Shown here piece after piece: positions 26,408-39,395 of a stretch of DNA of 64,000 nucleotides; position 1 is the first letter of the stretch; every line of letters starts with the position of its first letter. The stretch is taken from NCBI GenBank assembly GCA_013152275.1, contig JAADGS010000018.1, positions 11,896 to 75,895 of the forward strand, in the 5' to 3' direction. Source of the stretch: Actinomycetota bacterium (GTDB lineage Bacteria; Actinomycetota; Acidimicrobiia; Spongiisociales; UBA4744). The notes under the pieces were generated by a model. The model worked only from the letters and a program-made list of their open reading frames with translations. It was not told the DNA's origin and ran no database searches. A program made the position numbers and the translations under genes.

Positions 26408-26479
26408 AGCCGGAGCGGGGAATCGAACCCCGGACCTGCTCATTACGAGTGAGCTGCTCTACCGCTGAGCTACTCCGGC
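26408..26479 (-). tRNA. tRNA-Thr (anticodon CGU)
   Basis: Reverse complement reads GCCGGAGTAGCTCAGCGGTAGAGCAGCTCACTCGTAATGAGCAGGTCCGGGGTTCGATTCCCCGCTCCGGCT. Acceptor stem 7 bp, anticodon loop CTCGTAA, TPsiC GGTTCGATTCC. CCA is not encoded. Confidence 0.9.
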
Positions 26480-30843: not shown

Positions 30844-32748
30844 GTGAACCGTACCATCCGTTCGATCCTGGTCTACGGGCTGATCGCCATGATCCTGCTG
30901 GTTCTCCTCCAGCAGTATCTCGGCACGACGGCAGAGCCGGACAAGGTCTCGTACAGCGAGTTCTGGAACGACATCACCGCGGGCAAGGTCGCGACCGCGA
31001 CCATCATGCAGAAATCCAACGTGGTGACGGGTGAGTTCGTCGGTTCCGTCGATGGCACCCCGGACTACAAGGTCGATTATCTGCAGGAGGACGAGAACGA
31101 GCTTTCCGCGGCGTTGAGGAAGGCCGGCGTCGACGTGAAGGTCGATCCGGAACCGGCCGGATTCTGGGAGATCTTGATCACGTTCCTGCCGTGGCTGTTC
31201 CTCATCGGCTTCATGGTGTTCATCTTCATGCAGATGCAGGGGTCGGGGAACCGGGTGATGCAGTTCGGCAAGTCGCGGGCGAAACAGGTCTCGCGCGACA
31301 TGCCGAAGATCACCTTTGCCGACGTCGCCGGGGTCGACGAGGCCGTCGAGGAGCTGACCGAGCTCAAGGAGTTTCTCCAATCGCCGGACAAGTTCAGGGC
31401 GTTGGGCGCCAAGATGCCCAAAGGGGTGCTGCTGTTCGGCCCTCCCGGCACCGGTAAGACGTTGCTTGCCCGCGCCGTCGCCGGCGAGGCGGGCGTGCCG
31501 TTCTTCACGATTGCCGGTTCCGACTTCGTCGAGATGTTCGTCGGTGTCGGGGCGTCTCGGGTTCGCGATCTGTTCGAACAGGCCAAGGCGCAGGCACCGG
31601 CCATCGTATTCATCGACGAGATCGACGCCGTCGGCAGGCATCGCGGTGCCGGTCTCGGCGGCGGACACGACGAACGAGAGCAGACACTCAACCAGTTGCT
31701 GGTGGAACTCGACGGATTCGATGTCAACACCGGCGTGATCGTGATCGCAGGCACCAACCGGCCCGACATCCTCGACCCTGCACTGCTGCGCCCGGGACGG
31801 TTCGACCGTCAGATCGTCGTCGACCGTCCGGACCTGCCGGGCCGCAAGGCGATCCTCGCGGTGCATGCGCGCGGAAAGCCGCTCGCCGACGACATCGACC
31901 TGGAGGTGCTGGCTCGCCAGACGCCCGGTTTCACCGGGGCGGACCTGGCCAACCTGCTGAACGAAGGAGCGTTGCTGGCGGCACGCCGCGACAAGGACCT
32001 GATAGCGATGGAGGAACTCGAGGAGTCCATCGAGCGGGTCATCGCCGGGCCCGAGCGCAAGAGCAGGCTGATCTCCGACGGGGAGAAGAAGGTCATCGCC
32101 TATCACGAGACCGGGCATGCGCTGGTCGGGTGGGCGCTTCCGATGGCCGACCCGATCCACAAGGTCACGATCATCCCCCGTGGCCGCTCGCTCGGGCACA
32201 CGCAATCTCTGCCGGAGGAAGACAAGTACATCATGCGGCGTTCCGAGCTCGTCGATCAGTTGGCGATGTTCCTGGGCGGCCGGACGGCAGAGGAGTTGGT
32301 GTTCGACGATCCGAGCACCGGTGCCGGCGACGACATCGAGAAGGCGACCGATATCGCACGCCAGATGGTCATGGAGTACGGGATGAGCGACCGGCTGGGA
32401 CCGATGAAGTACGGGCACGCCGACGGCGAAGTCTTCCTCGGTCGAGACTACGGCCGTCAGCAGGACTACTCGGATGAGGTGGCCGCCTTCATCGACGCCG
32501 AGGTTCGCAAGCTGATCTCTCAGGCGCACAGGGAAGCTCGCCAGATTCTCGAGACTCATCGAGCCGCCCTCGACCGGATGGCGGCCGTGCTCATCGAGAA
32601 GGAAACGATCGACGCCGGCGAAGTCGCCGAGATCTTCAAAGACGTGCCGAAATGGCAGCACGCGCACAGCGACGGCATCCGTATCCGGGTTCCCGGCAGC
32701 GCTCCGGCTGCCGGCGGGGTCGCGGCCGACCACACGGAGACCGTTTGA
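30844..32748 (+). CDS. ftsH: ATP-dependent zinc metalloprotease FtsH
   Basis: N-terminal TM, AAA Walker [12 protein letters not shown], HEtGHAL zinc site. GGAG SD before the GTG start. Confidence 0.95.
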
Positions 32749-33323
32749 TGGGGGACGTTCCGGACCTCGAGGCGATCGCCGGAGCCGTCTACACGATCCT
32801 CGAAGCAGTCGGTGAAGACCCCGAACGTGAGGGCCTCGCGAGCACACCCGAGCGCGTCGCCCGCATGTACGCGGAAGTGTTCGGTGGGCTTCGTCAGGAC
32901 CCTAAAGAGATCCTCGAGACGGTGTTCGTGCGAGAGGAGCACCGTGAGATCGTCATGGTCAGGGATATTCCGTTCTACTCGATGTGCGAGCACCACCTCA
33001 TGCCGTTCCACGGGAGCGCGCATGTCGCCTACCTCCCCAAGGGAACGCTCACGGGACTCTCGAAGCTCGCCCGCCTCGTCGAGGTGTTCGCCCGCAGGCC
33101 TCAGCTCCAGGAACGGCTCACGACGCAGATCGCCGACACGTTGATGGATACCGTCGACCCGTACGGCGTACTGGTGGTCGTCGAGGCCGAGCATCTGTGC
33201 ATGAGCATGCGCGGGGTAAAGAAACCCGGAGCGATCACGACGACCTCTGCGGTCCGGGGCGCCTTCGCGAAGAGCGCGGCGACCCGCTCGGAGGCATTCG
33301 CGCTGTTGTTCGGGAACCGATGA
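32748..33323 (+). CDS. folE: GTP cyclohydrolase I
   Basis: [14 protein letters not shown] motif. TGATG overlap with the ftsH stop. Confidence 0.95.
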
Positions 33324-34159
33324 CCTGGCGGGTGCGCGGCGTGTCCCTCCCCGACAGGGCACTGATCATGGGCATCGTGAACGTCACTCCCGACTCGTTC
33401 TCCGATGGTGGCCGCTTCTTCGATCCGGACGAGGCCATCGCTCTGAGCGTCCGCCTCGTCGCAGAAGGCGCAGACGTCATCGATGTCGGAGGGGAGTCGA
33501 CCAGACCGGGGGCCGAGCCGGTACCGGCCGCCGAAGAGATCAGACGGGTCGAGCCCGTGGTGGAAGCACTCGCAGGTGAAGGCGTCGTCGTCTCCATCGA
33601 CACGACGAAGCCCGAGGTTGCCCACGCTGCACTGGAGGCGGGAGCATCGATCGTCAACGATGTGTCCGCACTCGGCGCAGCCGGGATGGCCGAGGCGGTC
33701 GCCGAGTCCGGTGCGGGGCTCGTGCTCATGCACATGCAGGGGACCCCCCGCACGATGCAGGCCAATCCCACCTATGGCGACGTCATCGCAGAAGTCAGGG
33801 ACTTCCTCGTCGAACGGGCGTTGTTCGCGCAGGACCGGGGCATCTCGCCGGGCCGCATAGTGATCGATCCGGGTATCGGATTCGGCAAGACGGTCGGGCA
33901 CAACCTCGCGTTGCTGGCGCACATCGGTGTCCTCGTGGAGACCGGCTACCCGGTGTTGATCGGAACGTCCCGCAAGTCGTTCCTCGGGGTGCTGACGGGA
34001 GAGGAGCGGCCGGAACATCGCGATGTGGCCACGGCTGCGGCGTCGGCGTTGGCGGTGGCCGCGGGGGCATCCGTCGTTCGTGTACACAATGTTGCCGTTT
34101 CTCGGCCTGCTGTGCAGGTTGCCGACGCTATGGTTCGATGTGGAGGCAGAGTGTCATGA
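33320..34159 (+). CDS. folP: dihydropteroate synthase
   Basis: [37 protein letters not shown] overlap with folE. Confidence 0.95.
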
Positions 34160-34632
34160 CGGGACTGGAACCGAGAGCGTTCACATGGGTGATCAAAGGG
34201 CGCCTGGCAGTGTGTGAGCGGATTGGCGGGCACGGCATTCAGCATCGCCGGGTTCGCCGTGAAGAGGAGATCGTCTGGCTGCAGAGTGGAGCGGGTATCA
34301 ACACGGTTGTGACCCTGCTCGCCGGAGGACAGAACGTGGCGAACTATCAGGACGCCGGTTTCACGGTGTTCCACGAGCCGCTCGTCGGAGAGTACGAACA
34401 GGGAGACGTCGATAGGGTGTTCGACGCCCTCGACCTCGCGTTGTCGGAGCCGGACAGCGTCGTCCTGGTGCACCGTGACCTGGTCGACGACACGATCGCC
34501 GGCCTGCTCGCCGGCTATCTCGTGTACTCGAAGCTGGTCACCGATCCGATCCTCGCCATAGCCGTCATTCAGGAGATCCTTGGCCGACCGCTCGGCCCGG
34601 AGGGCCGGGCGCTCGTGCCAGTCAGAGCCTGA
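34156..34632 (+). CDS. DSP-fold (dual-specificity phosphatase-like) protein with degenerate catalytic loop, putative pseudophosphatase
   Basis: Topology resembles DSP: ...GINTVVTLL...VFHEPLVGEY...SVVLVHRDLVDDTIAGLLAGYLVY. The HCxxGxxR loop is replaced by HRDLVDDT. ATGA overlap with the folP stop. Confidence 0.5.
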   Translation: MTGLEPRAFTWVIKGRLAVCERIGGHGIQHRRVRREEEIVWLQSGAGINTVVTLLAGGQNVANYQDAGFTVFHEPLVGEYEQGDVDRVFDALDLALSEPDSVVLVHRDLVDDTIAGLLAGYLVYSKLVTDPILAIAVIQEILGRPLGPEGRALVPVRA

Positions 34633-34639
34633 GGCTGCG

Positions 34640-34999
34640 ATGAGCGGACGAATCGAGCTGGGCGGTATCCGGGTCTTCGCGCACCACGGCGTGTATCCGG
34701 AAGAACGGCAGGCCGGGCAGACGTTCGTGATCGATGTGACCATGTACCTGGATCTCGAGCCGGCCGCGGCGACGGACGATCTGGCGGCGACGATCGACTA
34801 CGGGGCCCTTGCCCAGGCCATCCATGATCGTGTCGCCGACGAGCGCTGGGGTCTCATCGAACGAGTCGCCGGCCGTGTGGCCGATCTGGTGATGGAGGAT
34901 GTCCGGATCGATGCGGTCGAGGTGACCGTACACAAGCCGGAGGCGCCGATTCCCGTCCCGTTCGACGACGTGTCGGTCTCGATCCGGCGGAGTCGATGA
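34640..34999 (+). CDS. folB: dihydroneopterin aldolase
   Basis: IRVFAHHGVYPEER, QTFVIDV motifs. Confidence 0.9.
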   Translation: MSGRIELGGIRVFAHHGVYPEERQAGQTFVIDVTMYLDLEPAAATDDLAATIDYGALAQAIHDRVADERWGLIERVAGRVADLVMEDVRIDAVEVTVHKPEAPIPVPFDDVSVSIRRSR

Positions 35000-35952
35000 C
35001 ACGGGCGGCGATCGCTCTCGGCTCGAACCTGGGTGACCGGATCGACCATCTCCAGGTCGCCGTCGTGGCGCTCGCCGCCTGTGGTGAGGTCGAGGCCGTG
35101 TCATCGGTGTATGAGACGGCGCCGGTGGGCGGGCCGGAGCAGGGACCGTACCTGAACGCCGTCGCCGTCGTCGAGACGGACCTGGAACCCCACGAGCTGC
35201 TCGACGGCCTGCTCCGGATCGAGCAGGAGGCCGGCAGGGAACGAACGACCCGGTGGGGACCGCGAACGCTCGACCTGGACCTGATCCTGTACGGCGACCG
35301 GATGATCGACGATGAGCGCCTGACGGTGCCGCATCCCCGATTCGCGCTCCGCCGGTTCGTCCTGGAGCCGCTCGCGGAGGTGTGGCCGGATGCTGCGACG
35401 CCCGATGGGGGGTCGGTCGCCGCTCTGCTCCCCTTCGTGCAAGATCAGAACGTGTCGCGGATCAATCGACGGTTGAGCACTCGCCCGGAGACATTCACGT
35501 CTCGGGGAGGCTGGTGGGTGACGGCGCAGGGCGTGGTGCTCGTTGCGGCGGCGGTGGCACTGCTCACCGATGCGGGCTCGTTGGCCTGGCCGCCTTGGGT
35601 CGTCTGGTTGGGAGCGATTCTGGCAGTTGCGGGTGCCGTCGAGTCGTTGCTCGGGTCACGGCACCTCGGTGCGAATCTGACGCCGTATCCGCAGCCGCTG
35701 TCCTCGGGGAGGCTCGTGGCGTCGGGCGCCTACCGGTGGGTGCGGCATCCGATCTACGGGGGGATCGTGCTGCTGCTCGTGGGCGCGGCGCTGCTCCGGT
35801 CGAGTCTCGTCGCGTTGATCGTCGGGATCGTCGGCGCAGCGTTCTTCTGGATGAAGGCCCGCTTCGAGGAGGAGCGCCTCGTCGAGCGCTACGCGGGGTA
35901 CGCGGCGTACCGGGCGCACGTGAGGAAGCGGCTCATCCCCTGGGTCGTGTAA
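34996..35952 (+). CDS. folK: HPPK (FolK) fused to C-terminal ICMT/PEMT-like membrane methyltransferase domain
   Basis: N-terminal AIALGSNLGDR, RWGPRTLDLDLI and TVPHPR are HPPK motifs. The C-terminal half has ~4 TM helices and RWVRHPIYGG with EEER, the ICMT/PEMT family signature. ATGA overlap with folB. Confidence 0.75.
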   Translation: MTRAAIALGSNLGDRIDHLQVAVVALAACGEVEAVSSVYETAPVGGPEQGPYLNAVAVVETDLEPHELLDGLLRIEQEAGRERTTRWGPRTLDLDLILYGDRMIDDERLTVPHPRFALRRFVLEPLAEVWPDAATPDGGSVAALLPFVQDQNVSRINRRLSTRPETFTSRGGWWVTAQGVVLVAAAVALLTDAGSLAWPPWVVWLGAILAVAGAVESLLGSRHLGANLTPYPQPLSSGRLVASGAYRWVRHPIYGGIVLLLVGAALLRSSLVALIVGIVGAAFFWMKARFEEERLVERYAGYAAYRAHVRKRLIPWVV

Positions 35953-35955
35953 CGA

Positions 35956-36669
35956 TCAGGAGTCCAGCGACAGCTCCCAGACGCGGGCCTTCCACAGCAG
36001 GCGGGAGCCCCGCCGGGTGACGGTGACGATCCCGCGGTCGATCAGATCCTTGAGGGCTGCGCTTGCGGCCAACTGACTCGGCAGTGGGATCGGTCGGTCG
36101 GTGAGCGCCTTGACTCTCCCATAGAGGGCACGGGCCCGCTGGATGATCGCGGCCTCGTCCTGAAGGGTGCCTGTCGGCAGGAACAGTCTCCCCATCGGCC
36201 GGAGCCTGCGTTTCGCCTCTTCCAGCATGCGGATCGGCAGCTCGCTGCCGCGCGGACCGCCCCCGCCCTTGGTCGGGAACCAACCGCTGTCATCGGCGAG
36301 CCGGTCCGGGATTCCGGAGACGTCACCGATGATCACGTCGGCTTCGACGTCGTCGGGAATCGGTGAGAACAGGTCGCCCTGGTAGAAGGTGATCCTGTCG
36401 GCGACACCCTGCTCGACGGCATTCGCCAGGCCGACCTCCACGACGTCGGGGCTCTTGTCGACGGCGTGGACACTGGACGCCCCGAGCTTCGCGGCGATGA
36501 TCGCAAGGATCCCCGAACCGCAACCGATGTCGATGACGACATCGCCCGGTTCGACGTGCAGCGCCTCGGCGAGGAGCCCGGAGATCGTCGACGGCCGGAA
36601 CGTCGTATCGGAGATTCGTAGATGTATCGGCCCCAGTCGGCCTTTCCAGTTGAAGATGTTGCTGCCCAT
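35956..36669 (-). CDS. class I SAM-dependent methyltransferase (small-domain MTase)
   Basis: VIDIGCGSGILAI (motif I), acidic motif II, DVSGIP motif IV-like. Confidence 0.7.
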   Translation of the reverse strand: MGSNIFNWKGRLGPIHLRISDTTFRPSTISGLLAEALHVEPGDVVIDIGCGSGILAIIAAKLGASSVHAVDKSPDVVEVGLANAVEQGVADRITFYQGDLFSPIPDDVEADVIIGDVSGIPDRLADDSGWFPTKGGGGPRGSELPIRMLEEAKRRLRPMGRLFLPTGTLQDEAAIIQRARALYGRVKALTDRPIPLPSQLAASAALKDLIDRGIVTVTRRGSRLLWKARVWELSLDS

Positions 36670-36807
36670 GGCGTTTTCCTCGTTCGGTGCTTACACCCTA
36701 TTCGGATTCCGGATGTGTGCACGGCGGGTCTGCGACTTCGACTCGCCGTGCAGGCGTTTGGTTGCAGATCGGCCGCTACGCTGCACCGTCATGACCTTTG
36801 GCGGAAC

Positions 36808-38148
36808 ATGATCGACCGATTGCTCACCACGTTGGGGGTGTGGTCGCCGCTGCTCGTGTTCGCGCTCGCCATGGGGGAGAGCGCCGCGTTCCTCGGACTG
36901 TTTCTCCCCGGAGAGGTGACGGTGATCCTTGGTGGGGTACTCGCCGGAACCGGGGTCGTACCCCTCTGGGCGATGCTGATCGCAGCGGTTCTCGGAGCGG
37001 TGATCGGTGACTCGGTCGGGTTCTGGATGGGTGGCCACTTCGGGCCGGCGGTGCTTCGCAGGCCACGGCTCGCCAGGTTCGCAGGGCGGCTCGACGCGGC
37101 CGAGACGAGTCTGGCCCGACGTGGGTGGTCGGCACTCGTCGTCGCACGGTTCACATCGTTCCTGCGGGCAGTCGTCCCGTTTGCCGCCGGAATGGCGAAG
37201 ATGCCGTACGGGCGATTCGTCGTCGGCAACGTGGTCGGCGGGGTGCTCTGGGGGAGTTCCCTCACGCTCATGGGGTATCTGGCGGGTGACAGCTGGCAGG
37301 AGGTGGAACACTGGCTGTTGCGTGGTGGTTTGACGCTCGCGGGCGCGCTCGTCGTGCTCGGTGTCATCGTGTGGGCGAGCCGTTGGGTCGCGGGGCATCG
37401 CGAGAAGGTACTGGGATGGCTCGACCCGTTGCTGCGGACGCGTGTCGTTCGAGCCCTCGCGGACCGGTTGGAAGGCCCGTCGAGACGCGTGGCTCCCCTC
37501 CTGTATCTGTGGCCGGTCGCGTTGGTCATCGTCGGTGGTCTGTGGCTGTTCGGCGGTCTTCTCCAGGATGTGCTCGGGCAGGAGGAGTTCTTCTTCTTCG
37601 ACAAGCGGGCGCTGGAGTACGTGGCCACTCACCAGATACCGGCAGTCGTGCAGGCGGCGCGGTGGCTTGCCACGACCACACCGCAGTGGATGACGATGGT
37701 GGTCGGCGCGGGAATCGCCGCGGTCATGCTGTCGCGACGCTACGTCGGCCGCGCCATCGGGCTGGTCGTCGCCATCGCCGGCCAGTGGCTGATCGTCGAG
37801 GCGACACGACTTGTGGTCGACCGCTCGGCACCGTCGCTCACCGCGCTCGGCTCACGCGGCGACTACGGGTTCCCGTCCGAGTACATCGCCGCGCTCGTCA
37901 CGCTTCTCGTGATCCTCGCCTGGCCGTGGCGGCCGCAAGGGTGGCGTGCGACCACGTTTCGCTTCGGTGCCGCGATGCTGATCGCGGCCGTCGTGGGCTT
38001 CTGCCGCCTCGTACTGCTCCTCGAGTATCCGTCCGACGTGCTCGCCGGTGCAGCCGTCGGGGCAGGATGGACGGTGATGGCGCTCAGCCTCGCCGACCCG
38101 CGCATCCGGACGATACTCGCCAGGGCCGTGAAACACCCTCGGGAGTAG
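36808..38148 (+). CDS. DedA/SNARE-associated (VTT) domain fused to PAP2 phosphatase domain, membrane protein
   Basis: N-terminal DedA-like helices (FLPGEVTVILGGVLAG). C-terminal PAP2 motifs PSEY...YPSDVLAGAAVG. Confidence 0.7.
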   Translation: MIDRLLTTLGVWSPLLVFALAMGESAAFLGLFLPGEVTVILGGVLAGTGVVPLWAMLIAAVLGAVIGDSVGFWMGGHFGPAVLRRPRLARFAGRLDAAETSLARRGWSALVVARFTSFLRAVVPFAAGMAKMPYGRFVVGNVVGGVLWGSSLTLMGYLAGDSWQEVEHWLLRGGLTLAGALVVLGVIVWASRWVAGHREKVLGWLDPLLRTRVVRALADRLEGPSRRVAPLLYLWPVALVIVGGLWLFGGLLQDVLGQEEFFFFDKRALEYVATHQIPAVVQAARWLATTTPQWMTMVVGAGIAAVMLSRRYVGRAIGLVVAIAGQWLIVEATRLVVDRSAPSLTALGSRGDYGFPSEYIAALVTLLVILAWPWRPQGWRATTFRFGAAMLIAAVVGFCRLVLLLEYPSDVLAGAAVGAGWTVMALSLADPRIRTILARAVKHPRE

Positions 38149-38174
38149 TGCCTGTCGAGGTACCCGGTGCCCGG

Positions 38175-39395
38175 TCAGGCCGGCGCCAGGAACACGACGT
38201 CGGCAACACCGAAATCAGGAGCGACGAGCCGGTCCCGGAGCGGTAGGACATCCGTCTGCTTCAGCATGAGGGATCGCAGCACCCCGGCGCCTGCCGTGGC
38301 ACCGGCGAGCTGAAAGCCGACGATGCGACCGTCGTCCAGGAATACCTTGCGCATCAGGTCGCCCCTGCGCCAGTGCAGCTCCTCGGACCCGCTGCTCGCT
38401 CCGGCCACCATCACCGGCACACCGAGATGCTTCAGGCTGTTCATCGTCTCGGAGCCCTCATAGGCTCCGTCGTAGCCGGCGAGGCCATCGGCCACAACCT
38501 TCGCCTGAGCGACCGCGTTCGGGAAGATGGCATGAACATATCGTTCACCGGTGAGGCGATCGTATGTCTCGGCGACATCGCCTGCTGCGCTGATGCCCGG
38601 GATGTTGGTTCGAAGGTGATCGTCGACGCGTACACCCCAGCCGATGTCGAGACCCGAACCGGCAAGGTAGTCGACGTTCGGTTTCACCCCGGTGGCGGCG
38701 ACATAGGCATCGGCCGTCAGCGACTCACCGGAGTCGAGCATGAGACCCGTCACGCTCGTGGCACCTTCGAAACCGGAAGCCTTGGCCTCCAGGCGGACCA
38801 CGATGCCCCGGCTCTGCAACTCGGCCAGCACGATCGTTGCGGTCTCCGGGTCCAGCATTCTCGGCATGACCCGATCCATCATCTCGACCATGGTGACGTC
38901 CACGCCGAGATCGGTCAGCAGGAGGGCTACCTCCACGCCGATGAAGCCGGCGCCGACGATGAGCGCCCGTTCCACCTTGCCTCGACGGACCCCGTCGACG
39001 AGTTTGGAGGCTGCGGCCATCGACTTGAAGTTGGACACGCCCGGGAGGTCCCGTCCTTCGATCGGCGCGTACAGGCTGCTCCCCGAGGCGATGACCAGAT
39101 GGTCGTACGGCACACGGCCGGCCCCGTCGAGTGTCACCTGTCCGGATGTCGGGTCGATCCCCAGAACCCGGGTTCCGGAGCGGTAGTCGATGCCGAGACG
39201 GTCACAGACGTCACGACCTTTCCAGTAGATCGACTGTTCCCTTCCGGTCAGGAAGAAGTCCGCCATCGCGGGAGGTGCGTACGGCGGGTACGGTTCCGCA
39301 GAGATCATCACGATGTCGGTGTCGACGCCGTGTATGCGGAGCGTCTCTGCCACGGTGAGGCCGGCGGGACCGGCTCCAATGATCACGAGTTTCAT
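38175..39395 (-). CDS. FAD/NAD(P)-binding oxidoreductase (pyridine nucleotide-disulfide oxidoreductase fold, FNOR-like), CODH-associated
   Basis: Dinucleotide motifs VIIGAGPAG and LIVGAGFIGVE. No redox-active CxxxxC. Its ATG overlaps the cooC stop (TGATG). Confidence 0.8.
   Translation of the reverse strand: MKLVIIGAGPAGLTVAETLRIHGVDTDIVMISAEPYPPYAPPAMADFFLTGREQSIYWKGRDVCDRLGIDYRSGTRVLGIDPTSGQVTLDGAGRVPYDHLVIASGSSLYAPIEGRDLPGVSNFKSMAAASKLVDGVRRGKVERALIVGAGFIGVEVALLLTDLGVDVTMVEMMDRVMPRMLDPETATIVLAELQSRGIVVRLEAKASGFEGATSVTGLMLDSGESLTADAYVAATGVKPNVDYLAGSGLDIGWGVRVDDHLRTNIPGISAAGDVAETYDRLTGERYVHAIFPNAVAQAKVVADGLAGYDGAYEGSETMNSLKHLGVPVMVAGASSGSEELHWRRGDLMRKVFLDDGRIVGFQLAGATAGAGVLRSLMLKQTDVLPLRDRLVAPDFGVADVVFLAPA

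Follow-up and report, generated by a model that had tools for sequence, protein, structure and literature searches.

Background

The folate-pathway kinase HPPK (FolK) is by textbook account a soluble enzyme, and it is also an antibacterial drug target. Where FolK is on record as part of a fusion, its partners are FolB and/or FolP and never a membrane enzyme (PMC1971073, PMC4224340). The protein described here, encoded in a 64,000-nucleotide stretch of DNA (the whole of which we call the window), differs from the HPPK/FolK proteins of E. coli (1hka) and H. influenzae (1cbk) by an added C-terminal domain of four transmembrane helices. It also differs from the known classes of FolK fusion (FolB-FolK, FolK-FolP and FolB-FolK-FolP) in that folB and folP are separate genes at this locus; in the fusion polypeptide itself Pfam finds no domains but those of HPPK and the PEMT/ICMT clan, and FolB and FolP domains are absent from it. 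The HPPK-NadA fusion of the Gaiellales (L016, L029), a related actinobacterial lineage, likewise carries the product of another gene at the C-terminus of FolK, but there the partner is a soluble quinolinate synthase, unlike the membrane methyltransferase found here.

The described proteins with which the C-terminal domain (C-domain) can be compared include RhlM, a membrane enzyme of the bacterial ICMT family that methyl-esterifies rhamnolipids (PMC11069360), which shows that small amphiphilic compounds are methylated by bacterial members of this family. Amphiphiles are the substrates of those bacterial ICMT-family enzymes for which a substrate is known. A conserved His and a conserved Glu contact SAM/SAH in RhlM, Ma-MTase and Tc-ICMT (PMC11069360), and the same His and Glu are conserved in the C-domain. 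We claim no orthology with RhlM, which is a stand-alone protein encoded in a rhamnolipid cluster; the fusion locus has no rhl genes. Ma-ICMT/Ma-MTase (PDB 4a2n) and Tribolium ICMT (5v7p, 5vg9) have five or eight helices, as against four in the C-domain. The best sequence match of the C-domain in the PDB is AtTam46 (8xku_G, E 7e-10), which belongs to a complex derived from FtsH and is itself of unproven enzymatic role (PMC13533914). AtTam46 (PDB 8xku/8xkv, chain G) is a eukaryotic, seven-helix, ICMT-like subunit of the chloroplast Ycf2-FtsHi import motor, whereas the C-domain is bacterial and four-helix. A search of the literature for HPPK joined to an ICMT-type or DUF3180 protein found no report; as an architecture, this union of two known families is undescribed.

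The fusion gene and its operon

The positions of the genes and protein features considered here are collected in Table 1.

Table 1. Genes of the folate operon and features of the fusion protein (positions in the window)
Feature	Position	Strand	Remarks
ftsH	30844..32748	+	ORF boundaries; identified by Pfam on its orthologue in L085; first of the overlapping genes
folE (GTP cyclohydrolase I)	32748..33323	+	Pfam 255.7 bits
folP (dihydropteroate synthase)	33320..34159	+	Pfam Pterin_bind 289.8 bits
gene X, phosphatase-fold protein without catalytic Cys	34156..34632	+	158 aa; between folP and folB
folB (dihydroneopterin aldolase)	34640..34999	+	Pfam FolB 134 bits; not part of the fusion gene but translationally coupled to it
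folK::ICMT-like fusion gene	34996..35952	+	318 aa and stop; start codon shares the letters ATGA with the folB stop
HPPK (FolK) domain	34996..35445	+	aa 1-150; catalytic positions invariant in the fusion family
interdomain linker	35446..35508	+	aa 151-171; basic, poorly conserved
four-helix ICMT/PEMT-superfamily membrane methyltransferase domain	35509..35949	+	aa 172-318
RHPxY cofactor-binding motif	35743..35757	+	R250 H251 P252 I253 Y254
E291 E292, predicted C-terminal cytoplasmic helix	35866..35871	+	invariant; the glutamates of the ICMT cofactor motif

The reading frame of the fusion gene opens with ATG, closes with TAA and has no internal stops, and its GC content at third codon positions (GC3), which lies between 0.73 and 1.0 along the ORF, runs unbroken through the domain junction (0.77-0.80), where stops interrupt one of the two other frames. 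A preliminary description of this DNA had proposed that HPPK continues in frame into a membrane methyltransferase, and this is borne out, the ORF coordinates being exact and both domains scoring above curated cut-offs. The motifs that it quoted are all present, with GSNLGDR at residues 9-15, RWGPRTLDLDLI at 86-97 and PHPR at 112-115 in the HPPK half, and RWVRHPIYGG at 247-256 and EEER at 291-294 in the C-domain. Of an indel or stop codon between the domains, which it named as something that would speak against the fusion, there is no sign, the full-length fusion recurring in at least 120 independent clusters and contigs. The product of the gene is a genuine two-domain protein and no frameshift artefact; the public record of the identical protein (NOY54636.1) is named as a diphosphokinase only.

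The fusion gene, the single folK of the operon, stands last in the overlapping gene string ftsH-folE-folP-X-folB-folK::ICMT, and all fused loci examined have it as the 3'-terminal gene of their folate operon. In every examined locus that covers the region, ftsH is found 5' of folE, an order that is usual among Actinomycetota, whether folK is fused or not. Gene X is conserved and is a member of the operon, and has no part in the fusion. No structured RNA or riboswitch in the operon reaches an Rfam gathering score, and its interior shows neither promoter-like nor terminator-like sites. The convergent gene at 35956-36669 encodes a class-I methyltransferase. A connection between it and the fusion, which the coupling of the stand-alone relatives P0122 and P0123 to such an enzyme had suggested, was rejected: the two methyltransferases share a SAM motif only (E 0.048), and the convergent gene sits in a block inserted in this sub-clade only.

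The two halves of the protein

The N-terminal half matches the Pfam HPPK model (PF01288) over residues 6-131 with 138 bits (cut-off 25.7) and the NCBIfam folK model (TIGR01498) with 150.5 bits (cut-off 54.1), and fold comparison of the predicted structure finds in it the three-layer alpha/beta HPPK fold. Residues N54, R81/R83, W87, R90, D93, D95, H113, R119/R120 and F121 are invariant among 36 fusion-family sequences, and residues of this half align with the catalytic residues of the E. coli and H. influenzae enzymes; in E. coli HPPK the catalytic and ligand-binding residues are Asn55, Arg82, Trp89, Arg92, Asp95, Asp97, His115, Arg121 and Phe123. By its sequence, the N-terminal stretch of 150 residues reads as an HPPK with its catalytic residues intact, and its dN/dS of 0.14-0.34 indicates purifying selection.

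The C-domain matches Pfam PEMT (PF04191) over residues 202-299 with 45.1 bits (cut-off 25), an assignment at the level of the domain, and Pfam ICMT (PF04140) over residues 221-296 with 34.4 bits (cut-off 24). Models for particular functions score well below their cut-offs, with 55.3 bits against 160 for the protein-S-isoprenylcysteine O-methyltransferase equivalog (NF040696), 21.8 against 270 for the methanethiol S-methyltransferase MddA equivalog (NF045656) and 19.1 against 325 for the lipid A phosphate methyltransferase LmtA (TIGR04571). The structural model and hydropathy place helices at residues 172-191, 200-227, 252-267 and 271-298, and fold comparison finds an ICMT-type helical membrane fold. 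R250, H251, P252, Y254, E291 and E292 are invariant in all 36 fusion-family members, and dN/dS for this half is 0.21-0.28, again a value of purifying selection. Both domains assigned in the preliminary description thus hold by profile models, by sequence matches to solved structures and by fold, and the four helices that it predicted are seen both in the model and in the hydropathy profile.

Over the fusion family the linker ranges from 13 to 59 residues, changing by whole codons only, and its mean pairwise identity is 33%; the predicted structure of the fusion reaches a pTM of only 0.62, although its pLDDT is high. From its variable length, its low identity and this modest pTM, the linker is best explained as a flexible tether. 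Family-wide, Lys and Arg are frequent in the linker, in the loop between helices 2 and 3 and in the C-terminal region, and are nearly lacking in the loop between helices 1 and 2 and in the turn between helices 3 and 4.

Spread of the fusion and relatives of the C-domain

Full-length fusions with both Pfam domains make up at least 120 protein clusters, 47-99% identical and mostly from Acidimicrobiia MAGs; all 36 members sampled match HPPK, PEMT and ICMT, and independent NCBI, JGI, ENA and Logan assemblies contain the same uninterrupted architecture. A clade of Acidimicrobiia conserves the fusion under purifying selection. Its earlier characterization as atypical is right across bacteria but not inside this one clade, where fusion is the norm. 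Sister lineages (L005, L049, L079) have the same operon with the C-domain wholly absent, and related lineages encode FolK alone, a FolB-FolK fusion or a FolK-NadA fusion. No locus examined has the split arrangement, in which a PEMT gene of its own would come after folK. Several candidates were set aside, namely P0121 (L081), which appeared as a stand-alone C-domain gene beside DUF2520-panC and is really a fused gene split by an N-run; P0378, P0382 and P0420, apparent stand-alone C-domains that are truncated calls of fused genes; and L012 (Polyangiales), nominally a match over residues 6-311, which is a plain HPPK of 192 aa.

True stand-alone relatives also exist. Short "Ste14/ICMT-family" proteins of ~155 aa are 40-53% identical to the C-domain across its entire length and have in common with it an N-terminal RGGWWV motif and the RHPxY...EE signature, but they are unfused and are encoded away from folate genes. 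The closest of them, P0122, P0123, P0133 and P0154, reach 45-53% identity. The neighbours of these four are class-I methyltransferase, luciferase-like oxidoreductase or glyoxylate-cycle genes, and the genes for P0122 and P0123 are translationally coupled to a class-I methyltransferase gene. In an exhaustive search such proteins are interleaved with fused forms, and in a neighbor-joining tree of the C-domain the fused forms do not fall into one clean clade, as fits either a single fusion with later fissions or several fusions. The short bacterial ICMT-like family to which they belong has 1,184 cluster representatives at E<=1e-10.

A proposed role for the fusion

We think it fairly likely that the protein combines a membrane-tethered housekeeping HPPK with an active SAM methyltransferase that works on a membrane or amphiphilic substrate, and that the fusion has been kept without the two activities sharing a pathway. 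Motif conservation suggests that the C-domain is probably a SAM methyltransferase. By the distribution of Lys and Arg, the protein would have both termini inside, so that the cytoplasmic side would hold the HPPK domain together with the RHPxY loop and the EE helix, and in such a topology HPPK would act as an ordinary folate-pathway kinase on the cytoplasmic surface of the membrane. Bacteria are not known to make CaaX-prenylated proteins, and the substrate of the C-domain must for this reason differ from that of ICMT. By likeness to ICMT, RhlM, PEMT and LmtA, it would most plausibly be a membrane-embedded or amphiphilic molecule, methylated on a carboxylate or on another lipid head-group nucleophile. 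Most likely, loss of the stop codon that separated the operon's last gene from a membrane-protein gene downstream of it gave rise to the fusion, and we propose that the fusion persists because co-expression and membrane localization have become fixed, and not through a common substrate.

Alternative explanations

Two alternatives deny either the fusion or its methyltransferase half. An indel in sequencing or assembly, or a read-through, might have merged folK with a downstream gene, and assembly problems do occur in this gene, as the broken frame within the C-domain in L004 and the N-run that splits the gene in L081 demonstrate; against such an artefact, the independent assemblies agree, the linker varies by whole codons, GC3 is continuous and both halves are under purifying selection, and its probability is close to nil. 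In other Actinomycetota, such as mycobacteria, a DUF3180-type membrane protein of similar size (~150 aa, four helices) is said to occupy the same slot, between folK and DUF2520-panC, and the C-terminal part could be such an ordinary neighbour mistaken for a methyltransferase. Yet none of the 36 fusion members matches DUF3180 at E<=10, while PEMT and ICMT match them all and the RHPxY...EE motif is invariant, which makes this very improbable and bears out the methyltransferase assignment of the preliminary description. Among class-Actinomycetes loci, L011, L014, L015 and L028 carry no DUF3180 sequence.

The remaining alternatives accept both domains and differ as to what the second one does. A C-domain without catalysis might serve as an anchor or scaffold that holds HPPK at the membrane or docks it to a membrane complex, for which FtsH would be a candidate: AtTam46 offers a precedent in the Ycf2-FtsHi motor, and ftsH comes first in the same overlapping gene string. 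But the constancy of ftsH before folE reduces the FtsH link to an argument from coincidence, and with cofactor-motif residues that never vary among the 36 members, a C-domain dN/dS as low as that of HPPK and stand-alone homologues that retain these motifs although they have no partner to tether, we hold an inert anchor to be unlikely. Gene fusions often signal functional links, and SAM regeneration requires methyl-THF; the methyltransferase half might in the manner of a Rosetta stone act in, or be tied to, the pterin, folate and one-carbon system, either by methylating a pterin-, pABA- or folate-related amphiphile or as a major SAM consumer (a phospholipid N-methylase) locked to the folate supply. 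The stable 3'-terminal place of the fusion among the fused loci examined, and its retention across at least 120 clusters, speaks for such coupling, as does PEMT being the top-scoring Pfam model for the C-domain. The closest stand-alone homologues, however, never adjoin folate genes but occur in unrelated contexts, the sister lineages keep the operon without the C-domain, a comparative-genomics survey of folate genes has no such partner, and FolK is fused to NadA of an unrelated pathway as well, so that a C-terminal fusion to FolK need not mean a shared pathway. No ICMT-family enzyme is known to act on pterins. On account of the stand-alone homologues and the NadA fusion in particular, a functional link to folate seems rather unlikely. 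Of the earlier suggestions that the fusion tethers HPPK to the membrane or couples it to a methylation step, tethering follows directly from the anatomy of the protein, while nothing beyond the fusion itself speaks for coupling.

Even so, conservation of the fusion down to 47% identity, with the gene invariably last in its folate operon, exceeds what is expected of a neutral accident and could reflect a real functional link. HPPK might then need its four-helix membrane partner, perhaps throughout the Actinomycetota in view of the DUF3180 protein said to lie in the same slot, whether for the modification of a membrane metabolite linked to pterin, pABA, folate or one-carbon metabolism or for docking of a folate assembly to the membrane, conceivably beside FtsH; we regard this as quite unlikely.

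Significance

A version of HPPK fixed to a membrane methyltransferase is present clade-wide and maintained by selection, although public annotation names the kinase alone. At the minimum, the annotation of several hundred proteins is corrected, and HPPK can probably work while tethered to the membrane. The fusion also offers access to the short ICMT-like proteins of bacteria, a very large family in which hardly any member has a known substrate. Were the functional link true, which we judge unlikely, it would reveal a membrane-associated aspect, step or organization of bacterial folate and one-carbon metabolism that has so far gone unrecognized.

Identity and reality of the fused gene

The gene folK::ICMT, which joins an HPPK (FolK) N-domain to an ICMT/PEMT-type C-domain, reads from ATG to TAA through 318 codons with no internal stop, exactly where the preliminary description had placed it. 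The motifs quoted in that description are all present in the 318-aa product: GSNLGDR (aa 9-15), RWGPRTLDLDLI (86-97) and PHPR (112-115) in the kinase, and RWVRHPIYGG (247-256) and EEER (291-294) in the C-domain. Its two-domain reading is correct, as both domains exceed curated cut-offs in Pfam and NCBIfam profile searches: HPPK (aa 6-131; 138 bits vs 25.7) and folK TIGR01498 (5-130; 150.5 vs 54.1) for the first, PEMT (202-299; 45.1 vs 25) and ICMT (221-296; 34.4 vs 24) for the second. The N-domain belongs to HPPK by every feature tested, and profile, fold and motif all assign the C-domain to the ICMT/PEMT superfamily. Models for isoprenylcysteine methyltransferase (55 bits against a cut-off of 160), MddA (22 against 270) and LmtA (19 against 325) fall short, so that naming the C-domain after any of these enzymes would be unwarranted. 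An identical protein from an 'Actinobacteria bacterium' MAG, NOY54636.1, is annotated as a diphosphokinase only.

Genes of the folate operon and its surroundings in the window
Feature	Position	Strand	Remark
tRNA	26408-26479	-	Rfam, 72 bits
ftsH	30844-32748	+	first of overlapping gene string
folE	32748-33323	+	
folP	33320-34159	+	
158-aa gene (X)	34156-34632	+	between folP and folB
folB	34640-34999	+	
folK::ICMT	34996-35952	+	last of overlapping gene string
Class-I methyltransferase, PrmA/HemK-like	35956-36669	-	stop 3 nt from fusion gene's stop
VTT/DedA-PAP2 two-domain membrane protein	36805-38148	+	
Pyridine-nucleotide-disulfide oxidoreductase	38175-39395	-	followed by CbiA-like, prismane-family and ferredoxin genes

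The fusion is real, since four lines of evidence converge: GC at third codon positions (GC3) continues at 0.73-1.0 over the entire ORF (0.77-0.80 at the domain junction); searching 5.8 billion proteins recovered at least 120 clusters, 47-99% identical, all full-length and all with PF01288 and PF04191; in an alignment of 36 sequences the linker between the domains is 13 to 59 residues long and always differs by whole codons; and purifying selection acts on both the HPPK half (dN/dS 0.14-0.34) and the membrane domain (0.21-0.28). Mean pairwise identity is 58% for HPPK, 46% for the membrane domain and lowest, 33%, for the linker. Stops occur at the junction in one of the two alternative frames. 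The assemblies behind the clusters are independent (NCBI, JGI, ENA and Logan), and those clusters that carry a name are mostly from Acidimicrobiia MAGs. The frameshift or sequencing error considered at the outset has left no sign of an indel, and an artefact is effectively excluded by the full-length clusters and unbroken GC3. A DUF3180 identity (the membrane protein family proposed as an ordinary folK neighbour) is effectively excluded for the C-terminal part by profile search. Among loci of relatives (L-numbers), the frame in L004:6001-6980 is broken within the membrane domain (a pseudogene or assembly error), and the ORF in L002:6001-7146 extends beyond the usual C-terminus to 381 aa; in some MAGs such irregularities may reflect sequencing errors or local decay.

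Structure and topology

An AlphaFold2 model built from the family alignment has high overall confidence (mean pLDDT 87.6), but its pTM reaches only 0.62, in keeping with two domains that lack rigid packing against each other. Its N-domain matches HPPK 1cbk (score 25.0, 43% identity), and its C-domain matches archaeal ICMT 4a2n (13.7; 2.0 A over 144 residues), Tribolium ICMT 5vg9 (13.2), AtTam46 8xkv_G (12.0) and, at lower scores, membrane sterol/steroid reductases of the same superfamily. Sequence-only matches of the C-domain were to 8xku_G (7e-10), 4a2n (1.9e-7) and 5v7p/5vg9 (0.01). The HPPK positions N54, R81/R83, W87, R90, D93, D95, H113, R119/R120 and F121, all invariant in the family, align with the catalytic and ligand-binding residues of the E. 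coli and H. influenzae enzymes. The membrane domain has 18 invariant positions, including R250-H251-P252-x-Y254 and E291-E292; in this motif, the His and one Glu correspond to conserved residues that reportedly contact SAM/SAH in RhlM, Ma-MTase and Tc-ICMT (PMC11069360).

Four membrane helices, the number predicted initially, appear in the model (172-191, 200-227, 252-267 and 271-298). Across the family, Lys and Arg are abundant in the C-terminal region, the linker and loop 2-3 but nearly absent from loop 1-2 and turn 3-4. This pattern indicates an N-in/C-in topology, which would place the kinase, RHPxY loop and EE helix all in the cytoplasm. Such an arrangement would be topologically coherent and agree with the cytosol-facing cofactor site of ICMT.

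Operon context and distribution

The operon genes are joined by ATGA or TGATG overlaps, except for a 7-nt gap upstream of folB, and the operon interior showed neither a riboswitch nor any promoter-like or terminator-like site; the tRNA is the sole Rfam match at gathering score in the 64-kb window. The order Zincin_2-tilS-hpt-ftsH-folE-folP-X-folB-folK::ICMT is constant in relatives. DUF2520-panC-coaX-lysS directly continues the string in L088; in the window's sub-clade (L085-L087) a six-gene block intervenes, comprising a convergent class-I methyltransferase, a VTT-PAP2 protein, a pyridine-nucleotide-disulfide oxidoreductase, CbiA, a prismane-family protein and ferredoxin (35956-39395 and onward in the window; L085:7961-14822; L086:8012-14710). 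In several Acidimicrobiia (L001:7078-7398, L002:6977-7420, L003:7054-7395, L004:7100-7441, L005:6637-6975) a conserved and strongly basic protein of ~112 aa (MAKRSREHRQ...KVWKTKFWKRR...SNWPVIT) is encoded downstream of folK, whether that gene is fused or unfused, and ahead of DUF2520-panC; this protein has no significant Pfam match and is missing from the window's own sub-clade.

For the 158-aa protein, neither Pfam nor the PDB gave a significant match by sequence, and its 1,135 homologues are all annotated 'hypothetical'. Its conservation exceeds that of the fusion protein, and it occurs with fused and unfused folK alike. An invariant H-R-D-x-x-D-D-T stands at the expected place of the catalytic H-C-x-x-G-x-x-R loop. 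The protein may serve in a dephosphorylation or the step just before, or be a pterin-phosphate-binding pseudo-phosphatase.

FolK is fused to the methyltransferase domain in L001-L003 and, with a broken frame, in L004; it stands alone in other Acidimicrobiia (L005, L009, L049, L079), is joined to FolB in L007, L025 and L031, and in Gaiellales MAGs is fused in frame to NadA (quinolinate synthase) in a 475-aa protein (L029:6004-7431, L016:5210-6640; HPPK 131 bits, NadA 401 bits) with a nadB-like gene next, apparently a folate/NAD fusion of unrelated pathways.

Searches with the C-domain alone recovered a large family of ~155-aa stand-alone proteins, 40-53% identical over the whole domain and sharing its N-terminal RGGWWV motif. 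An exhaustive HMMER scan over 1.84 billion representatives yielded 10,119 matches at E<=1e-3, of which 1,184 reached E<=1e-10, and the ranking mixes fused with stand-alone forms. A crude NJ tree resolved no single fused clade. No folate context was found for the closest true stand-alone forms (P0122, P0123, P0133 and P0154, proteins from the homologue searches). The genes for P0122 and P0123, the two closest of these, each overlap a class-I SAM methyltransferase gene at its stop codon (L090:725-1950; L082:1100-2274), the two neighbouring methyltransferases being 77% identical, which suggests a two-methyltransferase module unrelated to the methyltransferase downstream in the window. P0133 lies downstream of a luciferase-like oxidoreductase, and P0154 has glyoxylate-cycle genes nearby. 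P0121 was rejected as a stand-alone form, since it comes from a fused gene that a run of Ns splits.

Interpretation

Judged from its sequence, folK::ICMT encodes a conserved, selectively maintained polypeptide in which the catalytic residues of HPPK and the cofactor motif of the ICMT superfamily are both intact. We think it probable, taking its parts jointly, that HPPK would run its ordinary folate-pathway reaction, held by a flexible linker at the cytoplasmic face of the membrane; that the C-domain would be an active SAM-dependent methyltransferase with a membrane-embedded or amphiphilic acceptor, by analogy with ICMT, RhlM, PEMT and LmtA; that the two genes merged when the stop codon separating the operon's last gene from the one downstream was lost; and that it would be retained for co-expression and localisation and not for a shared substrate. 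A shared substrate is disfavoured because stand-alone homologues occur in unrelated contexts, sister lineages with the same operon lack the domain, and FolK-NadA offers a precedent.

Nothing but the fusion speaks for the earlier suggestion of a methylation step coupled to HPPK: although the fusion stays stably at the operon's end, the only point in its favour, a true pathway or one-carbon coupling seems improbable, and there is no evidence of a chemical link between the two activities of this clade-wide fusion. The C-domain might instead be a catalytically inert anchor or scaffold, perhaps docked to FtsH from the same operon; the analogue would be TAM46, a subunit of the Ycf2-FtsHi motor for which an enzymatic role is likewise unproven (PMC13533914); we regard this as unlikely, given that the cofactor motif is invariant and recurs in stand-alone homologues and that dN/dS of the domain is low.

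The FolK fusion partners described so far are FolB and/or FolP (PMC1971073, PMC4224340), whereas the partner here is a membrane methyltransferase domain, a combination that we did not find reported in the literature. The component families are already known; what is new is their architecture, a fusion that is clade-wide and unannotated.
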